Below the pieces are notes generated by a model. The model was not told where the DNA came from. It did not search any database and saw nothing but the letters and a program-made list of their open reading frames with translations. A stretch of DNA of 39,822 nucleotides from a virus. Every line of letters starts with the position of its first letter. Within the stretch, counting starts at the first letter, position 1. Both the position numbers and the translations under genes were made by a program. The DNA lies in the UHGV virus genome UHGV-0171730; one strand, 5' to 3'. Below, in pieces: positions 24,519-39,772 of the stretch.

Positions 24519-25064
24519 ATGTTAAGTGAAGATATTAGAGATGTAGTTGGTTATGAGGGGCTTTATGCGGTAACTCGTGATGGTAGAGTTTACTCTCACT
24601 CAAGGATAATAAATACATGCCATGGGGCTACTCGATTAATGAAGGGTAGATGGCTGAAGCCAGCAAAGGATGGGGGCGGATATCTATTTGTTGGTCTCTG
24701 TAAGGATGGAGAGGTTAAACCAAAAAAAATACATCGAATTGTTGCTGAGGCATTTATTGAAAACAAAGAATCTAAACCATTCATCAACCATATAGATAAT
24801 AATAATCAAAATAATAATGTAGAAAATCTTGAATGGTGTACGCAACATGAAAACATGCAGCATTGCTCTAGAAGCGGTAGGGTGAAAATACCTCATTATG
24901 TGGGTTCTGAACATCCATCGTCCAAATTAAATGAAGATATAGTTCTGGTCATAAAAAATGATTTGATTACGCCAATTAGCGAGTTAGCTGCAAGATATAA
25001 TGTGACTGTTCAGGCCATACACGCCATTAAAAAAGGGAAGACATGGAGGCATGTGAATGGCTGA
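24519..25064 (+). CDS. HNH homing endonuclease
   Basis: N-terminal [16 protein letters not shown] motif; HNH core HIDNN...NLEW...HEN; AAGGAG RBS; AT-rich. Confidence 0.8.
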
Positions 25065-30895: not shown

Positions 30896-30979
30896 TTTGT
30901 TTTGGTTTTATGCTTGCTTGTATGTGTGTACAGTGCATATAATGCAAGCATACATCACAACAAAGGTGCTTGCATTATG
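30885..30979. promoter_or_regulatory. divergent control region with four alternating 11-bp sites and a sigma70-like promoter
   Basis: AATGCAAGCAT at 30885-30895 and 30941-30951; reverse orientation ATGCTTGCTTG at 30910-30920 and TGCTTGCATT at 30967-30976; TTGCTT (30914-30919), 18-bp spacer, TATAAT (30938-30943). Confidence 0.4.
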
Positions 30980-31969
30980 ACTGAAAAGAAAAGTGGCGAA
31001 GGGAAAGCTAAGGGCGGTATCGCTCGCGCAAAGTCGCTGACTAAAGAGCAGCGTTCTGAAATAGCAAAGAAAGCAGCGGCTGCAAGATGGAAGGATAAAC
31101 CATTAATTGCTACGCATAAGGGATCGTTCCAGCATGAATTCGGGATTGATGTTGAGTGCTATGTGTTAAATGATGATAACAAAACTGCCGTTATTAGCCA
31201 GAGAGGCATGGGAGAAGCGATTGGTCTTGGCGAAGGTGGCAGCAGGTTGCCAAAGTTTATTCAGGGGAAAACTATTTCTCAGTATATCGGGCATGAATTA
31301 AGGGCAAAACTTGAAAATCCTCTTATTTTTCAATACAAACAGGCGGGCACGAACACTCCAGCTAATCCTGTAATACATGGCTACGATGTAACAATATTAA
31401 TTGATTTATGTCGAGCAATCTCTAATGCTAAAGCTGAAGGTAAGTTGCTTTCCAGTCAGGAAGGGATTGCTAAGCAAGCCAGAATCATTATTGATGCATC
31501 AGCCAAGGCGGGCATTCAGGGGCTTGTTTATGCTTTGGCAGGGTATGACAGAACAAAAGAAGAGGTAATTCAAGCATATAAGCGATATGTTGCTGAAGAG
31601 GCTCGTGAGTATGAAAGAGAGTTCACCCCTGAACTTTATGAGCATTGGTATCGTCTGTATGGTATAGACAAACCAGTTAGAGGGCGACCATGGGCGTTTA
31701 AATATCTTACGATAGATCACATTTATTACCCATTAGCCAGAAGTGAAGGAAAGGTATTTAATTTAGCAAAAACGTCAAAAGAAGAAAAAGGCAGCAAGAA
31801 CGATAAAATACACCAGTTTTTATCAGAGGTTGGAGTTAAGGCTCTTAGAACCCAAATAGGTAAGGTTACTGGTATTGCAATGGTTTCTGATACTCGAGAA
31901 GAGTATGAGAAATACATAGATGAAAAGGTTATTGGACAAAGAACCATAGACTTAAAAGATAAAGAATAA
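30977..31969 (+). CDS. hypothetical protein (330 aa) with basic N-terminal region
   Basis: ATG 30977 downstream of consensus-like promoter; strong terminator after stop; N-terminal KAKGGIARAKSLTKEQRSEIAKKAAAARW; ORF-track start 30902 rejected. Confidence 0.5.
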   Translation: MTEKKSGEGKAKGGIARAKSLTKEQRSEIAKKAAAARWKDKPLIATHKGSFQHEFGIDVECYVLNDDNKTAVISQRGMGEAIGLGEGGSRLPKFIQGKTISQYIGHELRAKLENPLIFQYKQAGTNTPANPVIHGYDVTILIDLCRAISNAKAEGKLLSSQEGIAKQARIIIDASAKAGIQGLVYALAGYDRTKEEVIQAYKRYVAEEAREYEREFTPELYEHWYRLYGIDKPVRGRPWAFKYLTIDHIYYPLARSEGKVFNLAKTSKEEKGSKNDKIHQFLSEVGVKALRTQIGKVTGIAMVSDTREEYEKYIDEKVIGQRTIDLKDKE

Positions 31970-32022: not shown

Positions 32023-32559
32023 TCAAACAACCCACCAGTTTGCCTGATTGGATACCAGCCTTGCAGTTTTTATGGAATTAATTATGCCATGCTCAAGAGC
32101 CTTGTTAGCATCCAAAATGGTCGAGTCTGCTATCAGGGATGCCCACCTAATATGGGTTCCGATGTCGATATTGAACGTCTCAACGAAGCGATCAAGATCG
32201 TTATCGAGGCATTTCCCGTACTCTCTCAATCTGGCATGGTCGGCGGCTGGGGAGGCAAAGCACCATAATAGAGGATGTAACAGGAATCTTGATAATGGGT
32301 TTGCGAAACGTTCTGAGCCAGCCAGGAAAACGATATTAGCTATGGATTCAACATTGCTTATGTTGTGAGTTCTAACGGTAACAGGGAGTGACTTAAGAAA
32401 GTTATACGCAGTAAAGCCAGCGGCTGTTTCCCCTCCCTGACTTGATATATGGATATTTAATTCAGTTGCGCCTTGAGATAATGCGGTGAGACAGTGGTTC
32501 TGAAGTTGCCCAACAGTGGCAGTGTTAACGGGGCATAAGAAATGAATTGTGTGCAGCAT
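32023..32559 (-). CDS. ClpP-like serine protease-fold protein (178 aa)
   Basis: ISSQGGETAAGFTAYNFL resembles ClpP INSPGGVITAGMSIYD; AGSERFANPLSRFLLHP resembles [20 protein letters not shown]; start overlaps mnt stop. Confidence 0.55.
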   Translation of the reverse strand: MLHTIHFLCPVNTATVGQLQNHCLTALSQGATELNIHISSQGGETAAGFTAYNFLKSLPVTVRTHNISNVESIANIVFLAGSERFANPLSRFLLHPLLWCFASPAADHARLREYGKCLDNDLDRFVETFNIDIGTHIRWASLIADSTILDANKALEHGIINSIKTARLVSNQANWWVV

Positions 32560-32813
32560 TATTTATCATCCTTGCCATAAATCTTTTTAAGTGTCTCAAA
32601 CACAACGGCCTTGAACTGCTCTGCTTGCTGATCAGCCAAGCGTTCAGCTTCGTCTCGATAGCCTGCAATCGGTGATGGCTTTGAGAGAGCATCCTGAACG
32701 ATTTGTAATAACTCAGAGTTCATTGACCTTCCGTTAGCCTCTGCTCTTAATTTCAATTTTTCTCTTACTTCCAAAGGCATACGGAAGTTAAAGTGCGGAT
32801 CGTTTCTAGCCAT
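32559..32813 (-). CDS. mnt: Mnt repressor (ribbon-helix-helix)
   Basis: MARNDPHFNFRMPLEVREKLKLRAEANGRSMNSELLQIVQDAL matches P22 Mnt as remembered. Confidence 0.85.
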   Translation of the reverse strand: MARNDPHFNFRMPLEVREKLKLRAEANGRSMNSELLQIVQDALSKPSPIAGYRDEAERLADQQAEQFKAVVFETLKKIYGKDDK

Positions 32814-32835: not shown

Positions 32836-32887
32836 TTGACATGATAGAAGCACTCTACTATATTCTCAATAGGTCCACGGTGGACCT
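32836..32887. promoter_or_regulatory. immI control region: Pant promoter, Arc operator, Mnt operator
   Basis: TTGACA (32836-32841), 17 bp, TATATT (32859-32864); ATGATAGAAGCACTCTACTAT at 32841-32861; perfect palindrome AGGTCCACGGTGGACCT at 32871-32887. Confidence 0.7.
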
Positions 32888-32903
32888 ATATTGTGAGGTA
32901 AAT

Positions 32904-33062
32904 ATGAAAGGAATGAGCAAAATGCCGCAGTTCAATTTGCGGTGGCCTAAAGAAGTATTGGATTTGGTGCGTAAGGTGGCGGAAGAGAACGGGCGATCTG
33001 TTAACTCTGAGATTTACAAGCGAGTGTTGGACAGCCTGAAGAGAGAGGGGATAACGGTATGA
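32904..33062 (+). CDS. arc: Arc repressor (ribbon-helix-helix)
   Basis: MKGMSKMPQFNLRWPKEVLDLVRKVAEENGRSVNSEIYKRV matches P22 Arc as remembered; ORF-track start 32841 rejected. Confidence 0.9.
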   Translation: MKGMSKMPQFNLRWPKEVLDLVRKVAEENGRSVNSEIYKRVLDSLKREGITV

Positions 33063-33280
33063 GGTTTATTGAGGTTGATGAGATTGGCTATGAGAATGCA
33101 CTTGGTAGAGGTAAATCTTTAGTTAACATTGATGGCATTGAATCGATAAGGAGTGGTGAATTTACGGAGATCAGAATGATGTCAGGCGGAATCATTCCTT
33201 GCCGTGATTCAGTAGAGTCAATCAAATCAAAAATGAGTGGTCAGTGGCTTTATAGCTACAGTGACTTACAAAAACAGTGA
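33059..33280 (+). CDS. hypothetical protein (73 aa) between arc and ant
   Basis: ATGA overlap with arc stop; no motif recognised. Confidence 0.45.
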   Translation: MRFIEVDEIGYENALGRGKSLVNIDGIESIRSGEFTEIRMMSGGIIPCRDSVESIKSKMSGQWLYSYSDLQKQ

Positions 33281-33343
33281 AGCCCCAACTGCGGGAACAG
33301 TCAGGGCTTCGGTATCGTAAAACCACGCATAGGAATTAACGAC

Positions 33344-34267
33344 ATGACGAGTGTAGCAATTGCAGAACATACAATCAACGTTCCATTCCACGGAACAAAT
33401 CTCTTTTTGGTCAGCATTAACAATGAACCTTACGTTCCTATGAAACCCGTTGTAGAAGGCATGGGTATGGTTTGGGCTGCTCAATTTGTTAAATTAAAAC
33501 AGAGATTTGTCAAAGGTATTTCGGAAATCGAAATACCTTCTGCTGGCGGTAAACAGTTAATGATATGCCTTGCCTTTCGTAAGTTTGCGGCTTGGCTTTC
33601 AAGCATTCAGCCAAACAAAGTCCGCCCTGAAATCCGCGACAAGGTAATCCAGTATCAGGAAGAGTGTGACGATGTGCTCTACGAGTACTGGACTAAAGGC
33701 CATGTGGTTAATCCACGCAAAGCTAAAAAGGCGTTGCCGGGGAAAATCACTACTGAACAGCAGGAAGCCATTAAACAACTCGTCATGAGTCGCGGTCAGT
33801 CTCTGCCAAAAGAAAAACAGGCTAAGGCGATGATCACCATGTGGTCGTCACTGAAATCCCATTTTGGATGTTCGTACAAAGAAATCAGTGAGGAGCAGTT
33901 TACAGAAGCACTGTCACTTGCAGCTCGAGTTCCACTTGAAGGTGAGTTCATTGGCAAACAAGAAGAGTTACCAGCGCCAAAACTGGATATTAACTTCCCG
34001 ATTTCATGGTTTGCTGAAAATGCACCTTACGCCATTATCAGGCAGCAATGCGGTGATACTGTTGCTCTTGACCGCAGCGCACTCGTTGAATGCAGTCCGG
34101 CGTATAAACTAATCAATATTCTGACAAAAGCGGGGTATGACGTTTCAGCAGTAAGAGCTGAACTAAAAGCACTTCGCCATTTAATGGCTGAGCAAAGCTG
34201 GGCACTTAAAGAGATAGCTTCATTCGCAGCGATACGTGATAGAGCGTGCCACTCAATTAAACTTTAA
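33344..34267 (+). CDS. ant: antirepressor Ant (307 aa)
   Basis: Position after arc; size close to P22 Ant (300 aa). Confidence 0.7.
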   Translation: MTSVAIAEHTINVPFHGTNLFLVSINNEPYVPMKPVVEGMGMVWAAQFVKLKQRFVKGISEIEIPSAGGKQLMICLAFRKFAAWLSSIQPNKVRPEIRDKVIQYQEECDDVLYEYWTKGHVVNPRKAKKALPGKITTEQQEAIKQLVMSRGQSLPKEKQAKAMITMWSSLKSHFGCSYKEISEEQFTEALSLAARVPLEGEFIGKQEELPAPKLDINFPISWFAENAPYAIIRQQCGDTVALDRSALVECSPAYKLINILTKAGYDVSAVRAELKALRHLMAEQSWALKEIASFAAIRDRACHSIKL

Positions 34268-34305
34268 CTACCTGCACGAAAAGTGTAGGTCAATAACCAA
34301 CGCAA

Positions 34306-34332
34306 CGACCCAGCTTCGGCTGGGTTTTTTTA
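34306..34332 (+). terminator. rho-independent terminator after ant
   Basis: Hairpin ACCCAGC-TTCG-GCTGGGT at 34308-34325 followed by T7. Confidence 0.6.
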
Positions 34333-34389: not shown

Positions 34390-37335
34390 ATGAGAGACAT
34401 TACAGCCAATGTGATCGTATCGATGCCTTCGCAACTCTTCACTATGGCGCGTTCTTTTAAAGCCGTAGCTAATGGCAAAATTTATATCGGTAAAATTGAC
34501 ACAGATCCTGTAAATCCAGAAAACCAGATTCAGGTCTATGTGGAGAATGAAGACGGTTCTCACGTTCCTGTTTCGCAACCAATAATCATTAACGCTGCTG
34601 GATATCCTGTATATAACGGACAGATTGCCAAATTCGTTACCGTGCAAGGCCATTCTATGGCTGTTTATGATGCGTATGGTGCGCAGCAGTTCTATTTTCC
34701 TAATGTGCTGAAGTATGACCCTGATCAGTTACGGCAGCAATTAGAAGACCCAGATGGAGCGAATAAATACCCAAAACTTCAGATAGCAAGATGGAGAGAC
34801 AGTTATGATGTAAGAGGTTGGGGGGCTATTGGTGATGGTGTTCATGATGATACATCAGCTCTATCAGAATTACTTTCTGTTGCAACAGGTGGTGAAAAGA
34901 TAGATGGGCGAGGGCTTACTTTTAAAGTATCAACTCTTCCAGATGTCAGTCGATTTAAAAATGCTCGTTTTTTATTTGAGAGAATACCGGGTCAGCCTCT
35001 TTTTTATGCTTCTGAAGATTTTATCCAGGGAGAGTTATTTAAAATTACAGATACACCGTGGTACAACGCCTGGACGCAGGATAAAACGTTTGTATATGAC
35101 AATGTCATCTATGCGCCTTTTATGGCTGGAGACCGCCATGGTGTAAATAACCTCCATGTTGCATGGGTTCGCTCAGGAGATGACGGGAAGACCTGGACAA
35201 CGCCGGAATGGCTTACAGATTTACATAAAAACTATCCCACAGTTAACTATCACTGCATGAGTATGGGGGTTGTCAGAAATCGCCTTTTTGCTGTAATTGA
35301 GACGCGGACCGTGAGAGGAAATAAACTGCAGGTTGCAGAGTTGTGGGATCGCCCAATGAGTCGCAGCCTTCGCGTTTATGGTGGTATAACGAAAGCAGCA
35401 AATCAGCAAGTCGCTTATATTCGCATTACTGATCACGGATTATTTGCTGGTGATTTTGTCAACTTCTCAAACTCTGGTGTTACAGATGTTACCGGGAATA
35501 TGACGGTGACTACTGTTATTGATAAAAATACCTTTACAGTTACGACGCAAAATACCCAGGATGTGGATCAGAATAACGAGGGTAGATACTGGAGTTTTGG
35601 TACATCATTTCACTCGTCACCATGGAGAAAAACCAGTCTTGGAACTATTCCTTCTTTTGTTGACGGAAGCACTCCTGTTACTGAGATTCACAGTTTTGCG
35701 ACGATTAGCGATAACAGTTTTGCTGTTGGCTACCATAATGGTGATATTGGTCCACGCGAGCTTGGGATACTCTATTTCTCTGATGCTTTCGGTTCTCCTG
35801 GTAGCTTTGTTCGCAGACGCATACCTGCAGAATATGAGGCGAATGCATCTGAGCCATGTGTAAAATATTATGATGGCATTCTGTATCTGACGACCAGGGG
35901 GACATTAAGTACTCAACCCGGTAGTTCATTGCACAGAAGCTCTGATTTAGGTACATCATGGAATTCTCTTCGCTTCCCAAATAATGTTCATCACTCAAAC
36001 CTTCCTTTTGCCAAAGTTGGCGATGAGCTGATTATTTTTGGCAGTGAGCGCACATTTGGTGAGTGGGAAGGAGGAGAACCTGATAACCGTTATGCAGGAA
36101 ATTATCCAAGAACATTTATGACCAGAGTTAACGTCAATGAGTGGAGTCTGGATAATGTAGAGTGGGTTAATGTTACTGATCAGATTTATCAGGGCGGAAT
36201 AGTTAACTCTGCGGTTGGTGTTGGTTCAGTTTGTATCAAAGACAACTGGCTGTACTACATTTTCGGTGGGGAAGACTTTCTAAACCCATGGAGCATAGGG
36301 GATAACAACAGAAAATATCCTTATGTTCACGATGGTCACCCGGCTGATTTGTATTGTTTCAGGGTGAAAATTAAACAGGAAGAATTTGTTTCAAGGGATT
36401 TTGTCTACGGAGCCACTCCTAACAGAACGCTTCCTACTTTTATGTCGACGTCAGGCGTGAGGACGGTTCCTGTACCCGTTGATTTCACAGATGATGTTGC
36501 CGTCCAGTCACTGACTGTCCATGCAGGTACATCAGGACAAGTTCGCGCGGAAGTCAAACTTGAGGGTAATTACGCCATTATTGCGAAGAAAGTACCGTCT
36601 GATGATGTTACCGCTCAGAGATTAATCGTTAGCGGCGGTGAAACAACGTCTTCAGCAGATGGTGCAATGATAACGTTGCATGGTTCCAGAAGCAGTACTC
36701 CACGTCGCGCGGTATATAACGCACTCGAACATCTTTTTGAGAACGGAGATGTTAAACCTTATCTTGATAATGTAAATGCTCTTGGTGGTCCGGGAAACAG
36801 GTTCTCGACAGTTTATCTTGGCTCCAATCCTGTGGTTACCAGTGACGGAACATTAAAGACAGAGCCGGTCTCTCCTGACGAAACATTGCTGGATGCCTGG
36901 GGTGACGTCAGGTATATCGCTTATAAATGGCTGAACGCTGTCGCTATAAAGGGGGAAGAAGGGGCGAGGATACATCATGGTGTAATCGCGCAGCAACTTC
37001 GTGATGTTCTTATTTCTCACGGACTCATGGAAGAAGAAAGCACAACATGCCGCTATGCGTTTCTTTGCTATGACGATTATCCCGCAGTATATGATGACGT
37101 CATTACTGGCCAAAGGGAAATGCCGCTGACTGATAATGACGGGAGCATCATTGTTGATGAGGATGATAATCCAGTGATGGTAATGGAAGACATCATTGAG
37201 CGCGTTGAAATAACGCCAGCAGGATCTAGATGGGGGGTCAGGCCTGATCTCTTATTCTATATCGAGGCGGCATGGCAGCGCAGAGAAATGGATAAGATAA
37301 AAGCTAGGTTAGACTTAATAGAAGGGAAGCACTAA
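34390..37335 (+). CDS. tailspike: P22-like head-binding N-domain, sialidase-like (Asp-box) body, C-terminal intramolecular-chaperone-like domain
   Basis: N-terminal ~115 aa match P22 gp9 head-binding domain as remembered; Asp-boxes SGDDGKTW (35173-35196) and SSDLGTSW (35938-35961); C-terminal SDGTLK and HHGVIAQQ motifs. Confidence 0.8.
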
Positions 37336-37761
37336 ATGTTTCGTTGGCGTCAAAAATATGAACTGCTCACATAAAGAAGTAAGTACATTGGCAAAAAACA
37401 TTGACGTCAACGAAATTAAATATAAAACATCATGCAGACATATTACCAATATTAATATAAGGTAATAAAAATATAATTTACAAAAAAGGCCCGTTGGAAG
37501 CGACGGGCATTAACCGCGGTAATGGATAAATTATTAATGTTTTTAGATTGTGAACGATATCATATTGTGCGGAAGTAGTGAAGTAACCATGTAAAATGAT
37601 TGTTTCATAGCCTATGAGACACACAAGGCTTTGTGCTCTTCGATAGTTGTTAAGGCGGATCACTCTACCTTCTCATCAATCCAGTCCGCCCCCACTGCAT
37701 CATTTCTCTGCGCTTATCGAGATACTGAGCATGGTTGTAAATTCAACTAACCCAGTTCGTT

Positions 37762-37805
37762 GACAAAAAATTAGCGCAAGAGGACAAAAAATCACCTTGC
37801 GCTAA
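37762..37805 (-). terminator. sib/tI-like terminator in the att P arm
   Basis: Perfect 10-bp inverted repeat TTAGCGCAAG (37771-37780) / CTTGCGCTAA (37796-37805) followed on the minus strand by a T-run (plus A6 at 37765-37770). Confidence 0.5.
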
Positions 37806-37966
37806 TGCTCTGCCTCAGGTCACTAATACTATCTAAGTAGTTGATTCATAGTGACTGGATATGTTGTGTTTTGTAGTATTATGCAGTCTATTATTTAGAC
37901 TAAATCCTTCATAACATATTGATATTTACAGTGTTTTCTGTTTCTCGTTCAGCTTTTTTATACTAA
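37800..37966 (+). other. attR: lambda-type P arm plus 15-bp core GCTTTTTTATACTAA (37952-37966)
   Basis: P arm matches lambda attP left arm as remembered; core followed by CTTGAGCGAAACGGGAAGG, the E. coli attB right arm. Confidence 0.85.
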
Positions 37967-38641: not shown

Positions 38642-39772
38642 ATGAAACGCGCATATAAATACCGGTTTTACCCGACAACTGAGCAGGCTGAGCTTTTAGC
38701 TCAGACGTTTGGCTGTGTGCGCTTCGTCTACAATTCCATCCTTCGTTGGCGTACCGATGCGTACTACGAGCGAAAAGAAAAGATCGGTTATCTACAGGCC
38801 AACGCTCGCCTTACGGCGCTCAAAAAAGAGCCTGAATACATATGGCTGAATGATGTTTCCTGCGTTCCCCTCCAGCAGTCGTTGCGCCACCAACAAGCCG
38901 CCTTTGCTAACTTCTTTGCCGGACGAGCTGCATATCCGGCTTTCAAAAGCAAACGGCACAAACAGGTGGCTGAGTTCACTGCCAGCGCGTTTAAACACCG
39001 TGACGGCGAGTTGTATATAGCAAAGAGCAAGTCGCCGCTGGATGTTCGCTGGAGTCGAGAATTACCATCTGCGCCGTCAACCGTTACCATTTCCAGAGAT
39101 AGCGCTGGCAGGTACTTTGTTTCCTGCCTGTGTGAGTTTGAACCTGTATCAATGCCTGTTACCGCTAAAACGGTCGGCATTGATGTGGGCTTAAAAGATT
39201 TATTCGTCACCGATACCGGATTCAAAACCGACAATCCCCGCCACACCGCTAAATATGCGAAGCGATTAACGCTGCTACAGCGACGTTTAAGCAGGAAGCA
39301 AAAAGGCTCAAGAAACCGTATTAAAGCCCGCTTAAAGGTCGCCCGACTCCACGCGAAAATCGCCGATTGCCGGATGGACAATCTGCACAAGTTGTCCCGC
39401 AAACTGATTAACGAAAACCAAGTTGTTTGCGTCGAATCCCTCAAGGTGAAAAACATGATCCGCAACCCGAAGCTGTCTAAAGCAATAGCTGACGCAGGCT
39501 GGAGCGAACTTGTTCGCCAGCTCCAGTACAAAGGCAAATGGGCCGGGCGGTCAGTGGTCGCCATTGACCAGTATTTACCGTCCTCAAAATGCTGTAGTTG
39601 CTGCGGTTTCACCATGCAAAAAATGCCTCTTAATGTTCGTAAATGGCACTGCCCTGAATGCGGCGCAGACCATGATCGCGACATTAACGCGGCACGTAAT
39701 ATTAAAGCTGCCGGGCTGGCAGTGTTAGCCCACGGAGAGCCTGTAAACCCTGAATCGCAGCACGCGGCTTAG
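38642..39772 (+). CDS. tnpB: IS200/IS605-family TnpB (RuvC-like RNA-guided nuclease)
   Basis: RuvC-I GIDVGLKD, catalytic E in CVESLKVKN, Zn finger CxxC...CxxC, RuvC-III DHDRDINAARNI; no tnpA in window. Confidence 0.85.
   Translation: MKRAYKYRFYPTTEQAELLAQTFGCVRFVYNSILRWRTDAYYERKEKIGYLQANARLTALKKEPEYIWLNDVSCVPLQQSLRHQQAAFANFFAGRAAYPAFKSKRHKQVAEFTASAFKHRDGELYIAKSKSPLDVRWSRELPSAPSTVTISRDSAGRYFVSCLCEFEPVSMPVTAKTVGIDVGLKDLFVTDTGFKTDNPRHTAKYAKRLTLLQRRLSRKQKGSRNRIKARLKVARLHAKIADCRMDNLHKLSRKLINENQVVCVESLKVKNMIRNPKLSKAIADAGWSELVRQLQYKGKWAGRSVVAIDQYLPSSKCCSCCGFTMQKMPLNVRKWHCPECGADHDRDINAARNIKAAGLAVLAHGEPVNPESQHAA

Follow-up and report, generated by a model that had tools for sequence, protein, structure and literature searches.

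A full-length allele of the CUS-3 endosialidase tailspike gene siaK1 in a P22-like prophage with a lambda-type right end

INTRODUCTION

What does the large open reading frame (ORF) that closes the late operon in the virus genome UHGV-0171730 encode, and what does its product say about the capsule of the bacterial host? The stretch of DNA that was analyzed, called the window throughout, comprises 39,822 nucleotides, and the ORF in question spans positions 34390-37335. An earlier note, made from the letters of the window, had described the product as a chimeric tailspike with a P22-type anchor, a sialidase-like body, and a self-cleaving chaperone at the C terminus, and it had predicted specificity for a K1-type polysialic acid capsule. 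The analysis indicated that region 34390-37335 is almost certainly the tailspike, a receptor-destroying adsorption protein, of a CUS-3-type P22-like (Lederbergvirus) prophage. Exactly this chimera has been published and characterized for the prophage CUS-3 of Escherichia coli, and the window gene is an allele of the known gene.

RESULTS AND DISCUSSION

The gene and its closest relative

The tailspike ORF is uninterrupted and runs from an ATG to a TAA over 981 codons plus the stop codon.

34390..37335, plus strand: tailspike gene, complete, 981 amino acids (aa), allele of CUS-3 siaK1

In a megablast comparison, the gene was 99.3% identical on the nucleotide level and over its full length to siaK1 of the CUS-3 prophage in E. 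coli RS218 (CP000711). Both proteins share 969 of 981 residues (98.8%) in a gap-free alignment. The GenBank record of CUS-3 assigns siaK1 an endo-alpha-sialidase activity with the evidence code IDA (PMID 16689790), and this near-identity lends support to the predicted specificity for polysialic acid of the K1 type. The exact 981-aa protein is present in 116 blocks of a public assembly collection, and it resides at the same chromosomal site in all six places (6/6) among the matches listed.

A search of the tailspike against NCBIfam yielded no matching model. The promoter scan around the gene returned 9 sites compared to 9.0 expected from shuffled sequence. Since promoter-like sites were no more common than in shuffled sequence, no promoter is claimed.

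Domain architecture

The protein is composed of a virion anchor, a junction, an endosialidase body of glycoside hydrolase family GH58 (aa 146-817), and a C-terminal domain, with the following segments.

34390..34728, plus strand: Head_binding (PF09008), P22-type virion anchor, aa 1-113 (Pfam E = 2.3e-66, profile positions 1-113 of 113)
34729..34824, plus strand: linker or fusion junction between P22-type anchor and endosialidase body, aa 114-145
34825..35025, plus strand: End_N_terminal (PF12218), endosialidase N-terminal extension, aa 146-212 (E = 7.7e-37, 1-67 of 67)
35026..36375, plus strand: End_beta_propel (PF12217), six-bladed catalytic beta-propeller, aa 213-662 (770 bits, E = 4e-232, 1-367 of 367)
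35359..35607, plus strand: End_beta_barrel (PF12195), inserted within the propeller, aa 324-406 (E = 1.6e-45, 1-83 of 83)
36376..36840, plus strand: End_tail_spike (PF12219), stalk, aa 663-817 (E = 3.9e-78, 1-160 of 160), ending at the predicted mature C terminus Thr817
36841..37332, plus strand: Peptidase_S74/ICA, putative intramolecular chaperone and autoprotease, aa 818-981, with the predicted cleavage site between Thr817 and Ser818

The P22 gp9-like head-binding domain claimed in the earlier note was recovered by the full-length PF09008 match. The similarity to P22 tailspikes extends to about aa 127, and residues 1-127 match the head-binding domains of the P22, Sf6, and HK620-type tailspikes. 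A search of the Protein Data Bank returned Sf6 gp14 (7sg7) with an E value of 4e-64 and the P22 structures 8tvr, 1lkt, and 2vky with E values of 1e-44 to 1e-50 (1lkt, 8.7e-45). Homology to endoNF, the endosialidase gp17 of coliphage K1F, begins at aa 145/146, which corresponds to endoNF residue 245/246, so that the junction lies between this position and the end of the P22 homology at about aa 127. From aa 145 to aa 817, the protein matched the crystal structures 1v0e/3gvl of endoNF from end to end (E = 0, about 1046 bits), and the body was 65.2% identical to K1F gp17 over 672 aa in a tblastn search against phages. By homology, the endoNF crystals (60-65% identity) cover aa 145-979 and the P22 and Sf6 structures aa 1-127.

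Four short motifs had been important for the first description of the protein.

35173-35196, plus strand: Asp-box 1, SGDDGKTW, aa 262-269, aligned with SGDDGQTW of endoNF
35938-35961, plus strand: Asp-box 2, SSDLGTSW, aa 517-524, aligned with SRDIGQTW of endoNF
36841-36858, plus strand: SDGTLK motif, aa 818-823
36973-36996, plus strand: HHGVIAQQ motif, aa 862-869

The pattern S.D.G..W occurs exactly twice in the 981-aa protein, with a chance expectation of about 0.003 as a rough estimate. Both copies, already recognized in the earlier note as Asp-boxes, pair with the corresponding motifs of endoNF, which indicates that neither is there by chance.

The two Asp-boxes and a weak match to BNR_2 (E = 0.003) may also be read as the signature of an ordinary GH33-type exo-sialidase (neuraminidase) mounted on a phage anchor. 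The BNR_2 match reached only 17.3 bits compared to a cutoff of 31.4 bits, however, and this sub-threshold score indicates that the body is specifically an endosialidase. The endosialidase propeller model matched over its full length with 770 bits, the other endosialidase-specific models also matched completely, and endoNF could be aligned end to end. A body of the exo-sialidase or generic sialidase type was rejected on these grounds and is scarcely conceivable. Of the “sialidase-like” body in the earlier note, the Asp-boxes and the propeller stand, while the body itself is that of a true endosialidase.

The C-terminal domain had been described as chaperone-like, with a length of about 150 aa. 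The first part of this description held: Peptidase_S74 (PF13884) matched aa 818-878 with E = 3e-10 and 40.8 bits against a cutoff of 22, the SDGTLK and HHGVIAQQ motifs are present, and aa 698-979 matched the C-terminal chaperone structure 3gw6 of endoNF with E = 2e-93, or 1.5e-63 when the alignment was limited to the C-terminal domain (aa 790-979). The length had to be corrected to 164 aa (818-981). Alignment to endoNF and a profile search for sialidase-type and S74 domains had been suggested as checks of the chimera. The body aligned from end to end with the key residues kept, and both types of domain were found above threshold, the sialidase-type match being endosialidase specific.

Catalytic residues, cleavage site, and possible mode of action

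Relative to endoNF, the window protein has an insertion of 7 residues at aa 423-429. Its residue numbers are converted to those of endoNF by adding 100 ahead of this insertion and 93 behind it. With this offset, H250, R456, E488, R503, and R554 are conserved and align with H350, R549, E581, R596, and R647 of endoNF, which have been described as catalytic or substrate residues (PMC12632334). The predicted cleavage site shows a similar picture. Ser818 and Lys823 align with Ser911 and Lys916 of endoNF, with S818-D-G-T-L-K823 in the window protein versus S911-N-G-E-R-K916, which agrees with the resemblance to the chaperones of K1-phage endosialidases noted before. The chain in 3gw6 carries the S911A form, and the mature endoNF chains in the crystals terminate with GSNPIVT, which aligns with GSNPVVT817. 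Auto-cleavage in endoNF (S911/K916) and in MYRF (S578/K583) is catalyzed by a Ser-Lys dyad, and the S74-type domain acts as a folding and trimerization chaperone that subsequently removes itself (PMC3742443).

Twelve residues differ from CUS-3 SiaK1: T2R, T43P, T121P, V207A, E280K, S309R, G366D, A555T, I807T, I967M, E968D, and R969K. With respect to the stalk, one of three residues of the polysialic acid site presumably differs, endoNF Q853 being M760 here.

Homology to the characterized proteins allows a mode of action to be proposed. The 981-aa precursor would trimerize with the help of the C-terminal 164-aa chaperone domain. After folding of the stalk, Ser818 and Lys823 would cut the Thr817-Ser818 bond and free the chaperone, aa 818-981. 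The mature trimer with about 817 residues per chain may then dock onto a P22-type tail via the head-binding domain (aa 1-113). The active site of the propeller, formed by H250, R456, E488, R503, and R554, would bind alpha-2,8-polysialic acid and cleave it internally, which should allow the podovirus to tunnel through the capsule of E. coli K1 to the outer membrane. Endo-cleavage of this polymer by the window allele is probable, the activity itself being recorded only for the 98.8%-identical protein of CUS-3.

Host capsule type

The serotype of the host, at which the earlier note had hinted, can be approached through the genomes that carry near-identical genes. The named hosts of these genes are K1 strains, among them RS218, CE10 (O7:K1), and many records labeled “serovar:K1.” Several assemblies, among them GCA_026956895.1, GCA_023871095.1, and GCA_958311545.1, and a metagenome scaffold contain loci that are 100% identical along as much as 15.4 kb. 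The closest complete genome at the locus, that of MS20659, is 99.05% identical over 5.5 kb and possesses the capsule cluster kpsFEDUCS-neuSECABD-kpsTM, composed of kpsFEDUCS, neuS for the alpha-2,8-polysialyltransferase, neuE (annotated as frameshifted), neuC, neuA, neuB, neuD, and kpsTM. The endosialidase body was detected in 186 of 5,426 complete E. coli genomes (3.4%) and neuS in 329. Six of the ten neuS-positive genomes displayed also carry the endosialidase, five of them from the endosialidase sample listed plus MS20659, and among these ten genomes the co-occurrence is far above the expectation for independence. These data support a K1-encapsulated host lineage on the basis of the hosts of relatives. 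The conclusion on the serotype is a probabilistic one; a prophage reflects the receptor at the time of lysogeny.

The target might nevertheless be a variant of the polymer, either O-acetylated polysialic acid or the mixed alpha-2,8/2,9 polymer of K92 instead of plain K1. Identity between the body and endoNF is only 65%, one residue of the stalk site presumably differs (M760), and the 12 substitutions compared to CUS-3 include T555 directly beside R554 and D366 in the beta-barrel. On the other hand, M760 is shared with the characterized CUS-3 enzyme, all active-site residues are conserved, and the named hosts are of type K1, with the K1 polysialyltransferase gene neuS in the closest complete genome. 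Such a shift in specificity is highly improbable, and plain K1 polysialic acid is the probable substrate.

Position within the prophage

The tailspike gene occupies the position of gene 9 in P22, following mnt-arc-sar-ant at the end of a late operon that appears to be intact.

32559-32813, minus strand: mnt
32841-33062: arc
33276-33342, minus strand: sar antisense RNA (Rfam, 76.6 bits), just upstream of ant
33344-34267: ant
34307..34326, plus strand: terminator-like hairpin with T-run in the intergenic “boundary sequence” between ant and the tailspike gene, annotated as bsq1 in the CUS-3 record

Homologues of P22 gp7, gp20, and gp16 precede mnt, arc, sar, and ant, as does a head and packaging operon that appears to be intact. 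The ORFs in the window for terminase, portal, scaffold, coat, gp4/10/26, and the ejection proteins are all full length. Identity to CUS-3 was about 85% in ant and rose to 99.2% from position 34293 onward, which is inside bsq1. This jump within the boundary sequence indicates that the tailspike gene behaves as an exchangeable cassette.

Some other features of the prophage were also observed. Gene 16 and mnt are separated by the variable “ant moron” region, which contains an ORF for a P63C-domain protein (30902-31969, plus strand) and a homologue of a ClpP-like protease (32023-32559, minus strand; PF00574, E = 2e-11). An ORF of 181 aa similar to HNH/NUMOD4 homing endonucleases (24519-25064, plus strand) is situated between the gp10-like (Phage_stabilise) gene and the next gene, which encodes 233 aa and yielded no Pfam match. 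In the early-left operon, a lambda cIII thermoregulator element was assigned to 2478-2536 on the minus strand (Rfam, 88.5 bits), and the early-region protein encoded at 1406-2083 of the window is common to thousands of unrelated lambdoid prophages.

Empty neuO site and attachment site

Downstream of the tailspike gene, the window differs from CUS-3 in its gene content and in its site of integration.

37410..37427, plus strand: empty neuO site, defined by BLAST breakpoints; the 836-bp cassette found in CUS-3 and CE10 is missing at precisely this position
37743..37966, plus strand: right end of the prophage, attR, with a lambda/434/HK106-type attP P arm, followed by ybhB

The neuO cassette in CUS-3 and CE10 (locus L001, 9021-9892; locus L002, 3511-4375) has an imperfect direct repeat, ACGAAATTAAATATAAAA and ACGCAATAAATATAAAA, at its two borders. 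AAGACTC heptanucleotide repeats, which are part of the cassette, did not occur within the window. The clean absence of neuO is consistent with a precise deletion and also with an ancestral empty site. Sequence similar to CUS-3 resumes at 37428-37742. Its last part is an 84-bp remnant of the argW-type integrase gene of CUS-3, derived from the 3' end of that gene, and this remnant suggests capture of the tailspike module from a genome of the CUS-3 type. A terminator hairpin on the minus strand at 37489-37508 was noted downstream of the neuO site.

The P arm at 37743-37966 is 88-95% identical to that of lambdoid phages, with the lambda core GCTTTTTTATACTAA at 37952-37966. In relatives, ybhB and bioA are annotated at this site, and the lambda-type attR beside ybhB-bioA indicates that this P22-like phage uses the lambda integration site. 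ARAGORN identified no tRNA gene in the window, which rules out integration at a tRNA gene (argW) at this end of the prophage. The opposite end of the prophage was seen in the relative MS20659, where int and xis lie beside ybhC. The region pgl-bioA has been published as an alternative site of CUS-3-like phages, for instance, in CE10 and IAI39 (PMC9659370). Assignment to CUS-3 in the strict sense, the RS218 type, was considered and discarded: the neuO cassette is absent, and the prophage is not integrated at argW with an adjacent integrase gene.

Between ybhB and bioA, a solitary TnpB of the IS200/IS605 family, a family of RNA-guided endonucleases, is encoded at 38642-39772 on the plus strand (376 aa; NF040570, 369 bits). 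It is variably present among strains with this prophage, being absent from loci L004, L006, and L009, and no TnpA was visible within the window.

The missing neuO cassette and the 84-bp integrase relic downstream lead to the question of whether the tailspike gene only looks intact and has lost its role as a virion protein in a decaying, no longer inducible prophage, being left over either as a relic or possibly as a domesticated enzyme for trimming of the capsule. CUS-3-like elements are reported to be prone to decay, often with pseudogenes in place of tail and coat genes (PMC9659370); the homologue in CE10 is frameshifted. Against decay, the tailspike ORF has its full length and has kept all key residues, the structural, packaging, and ejection-protein ORFs mentioned above are full length as well, the protein sequence is identical across the 116 collection blocks, and int plus xis are present at the other end of the prophage in MS20659. 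Decay is unlikely, and the prophage of the window may still be inducible.

Several points weigh against assignment of the gene to a functional K1-specific tailspike. The 12 residues in which the window allele differs from the characterized CUS-3 protein include T555, which is A555 in CUS-3 and adjoins the catalytic R554. The frequent decay reported for CUS-3-like prophages (PMC9659370) and the frameshift in CE10 mean that an intact ORF is no proof of an active phage. Moreover, the evidence for a K1 capsule comes from the genomes of relatives.

A further scenario would connect the empty neuO site with the substitutions. A neuO-less lineage at the lambda attachment site might have a distinct, widespread allele with substitutions (A555T beside R554, and E280K, S309R, and G366D within the propeller and beta-barrel or close to them) that tune the activity to non-O-acetylated polysialic acid, in a co-adaptation to neuO being lost or absent, and the body might also have been shuffled onto a second, non-P22 anchor in the pool of K1 prophages. 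This scenario in its entirety is speculative and very unlikely.

Significance

The gene is a reliable genomic marker indicating that the lysogenized lineage is K1 encapsulated now or was so recently. K1 is the capsule type of E. coli causing neonatal meningitis and urinary-tract infections and of avian pathogenic E. coli. Endosialidases are used as reagents for the removal of polysialic acid and are candidate anti-capsule therapeutics. The chimera, its chaperone-mediated maturation, the K1 specificity, and the pgl-bioA insertion site have already been published. The window gene leaves the current understanding unchanged, and its practical value is modest. The widespread intact neuO-less form, the imperfect direct repeat of the neuO cassette, and the occurrence of the same body on a second anchor are mildly useful additions.

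Comparison with known systems

The closest known system is SiaK1 of CUS-3 (ABQ88383.1/CAJ29292.1; Stummeyer et al. 2006, PMID 16689790; King et al. 2007, PMID 17601779), which agrees with the window protein in its length of 981 aa, start, stop, and three-part architecture. Both genes also follow ant within a late operon of the P22 type and are preceded by the same “boundary sequence.” CUS-3 has neuO and int behind its tailspike gene and resides at argW, whereas the window contains no neuO and a lambda-type attR beside ybhB. The CUS-3-like prophages of CE10 and IAI39 share with the window the chromosomal site (ybhC/ybhB, lambda att), the tailspike, and the downstream sequence, but both carry neuO between the tailspike gene and attR. 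In CE10, the tailspike gene (locus L002, 490-3436) is annotated as frameshifted and neuO is intact; the reverse applies to the window, with an intact tailspike gene and no neuO.

The CUS-3 tailspike combines the N-terminal domain found in the P22, Sf6, and HK620 tailspikes with a catalytic domain as in K1F, and the endosialidase of K1F itself uses an anchor of the T7 gp17 type instead of the P22 head-binding domain (PMC5380687). EndoNF of the lytic coliphage K1F (gp17; 1V0E, 3GVL, and 3GW6) is homologous to the window protein throughout the catalytic body and the chaperone, with both Asp-boxes kept; the differences include the 7-residue insertion at aa 423-429 and D819 in place of N912 of endoNF. 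Homology to P22 gp9, Sf6 gp14, and the HK620 tailspike is confined to the N-terminal 113-127 residues (E = 1e-44 to 4e-64), and the location of the gene, behind the immI/ant region where the late operon ends, is that of a P22-type tailspike gene. In these three tailspikes, which have no S74 chaperone, the body is a right-handed beta-helix that attacks the O antigen as an endorhamnosidase or endoglucosaminidase (PMC5380687). In contrast, the body of the window protein is a beta-propeller endosialidase, which should act on the capsule.

Relatives of the body in phages, as found by tblastn, were those of K1F-like (about 65% identity), K1E/K1-5-like (about 61%), and 63D/K1H-like phages (about 58%), followed by large coliphages of about 150 kb with a product annotated as endo-N-acetylneuraminidase (about 59-60%) and by Mannheimia phages (37%). 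In prophages of the E. coli MS8345 type, an endosialidase (WP_101408927.1, 1039 aa) shares the body and chaperone with 96% identity across aa 134-980, close to complete from about aa 175 onward, but it possesses an unrelated N-terminal module of about 190 aa (MTVSTEVDHNEYTGNG...) in place of the P22 anchor. The fusion gene of MS8345 (locus L020, 5303-8422) is located in another type of prophage and is followed by genes for holins, a GH19 endolysin, a DUF2514 protein, and an integrase. The breakpoint of the MS8345-type anchor was present in at least nine of the sampled genomes, and this fusion is another illustration of anchor swapping.

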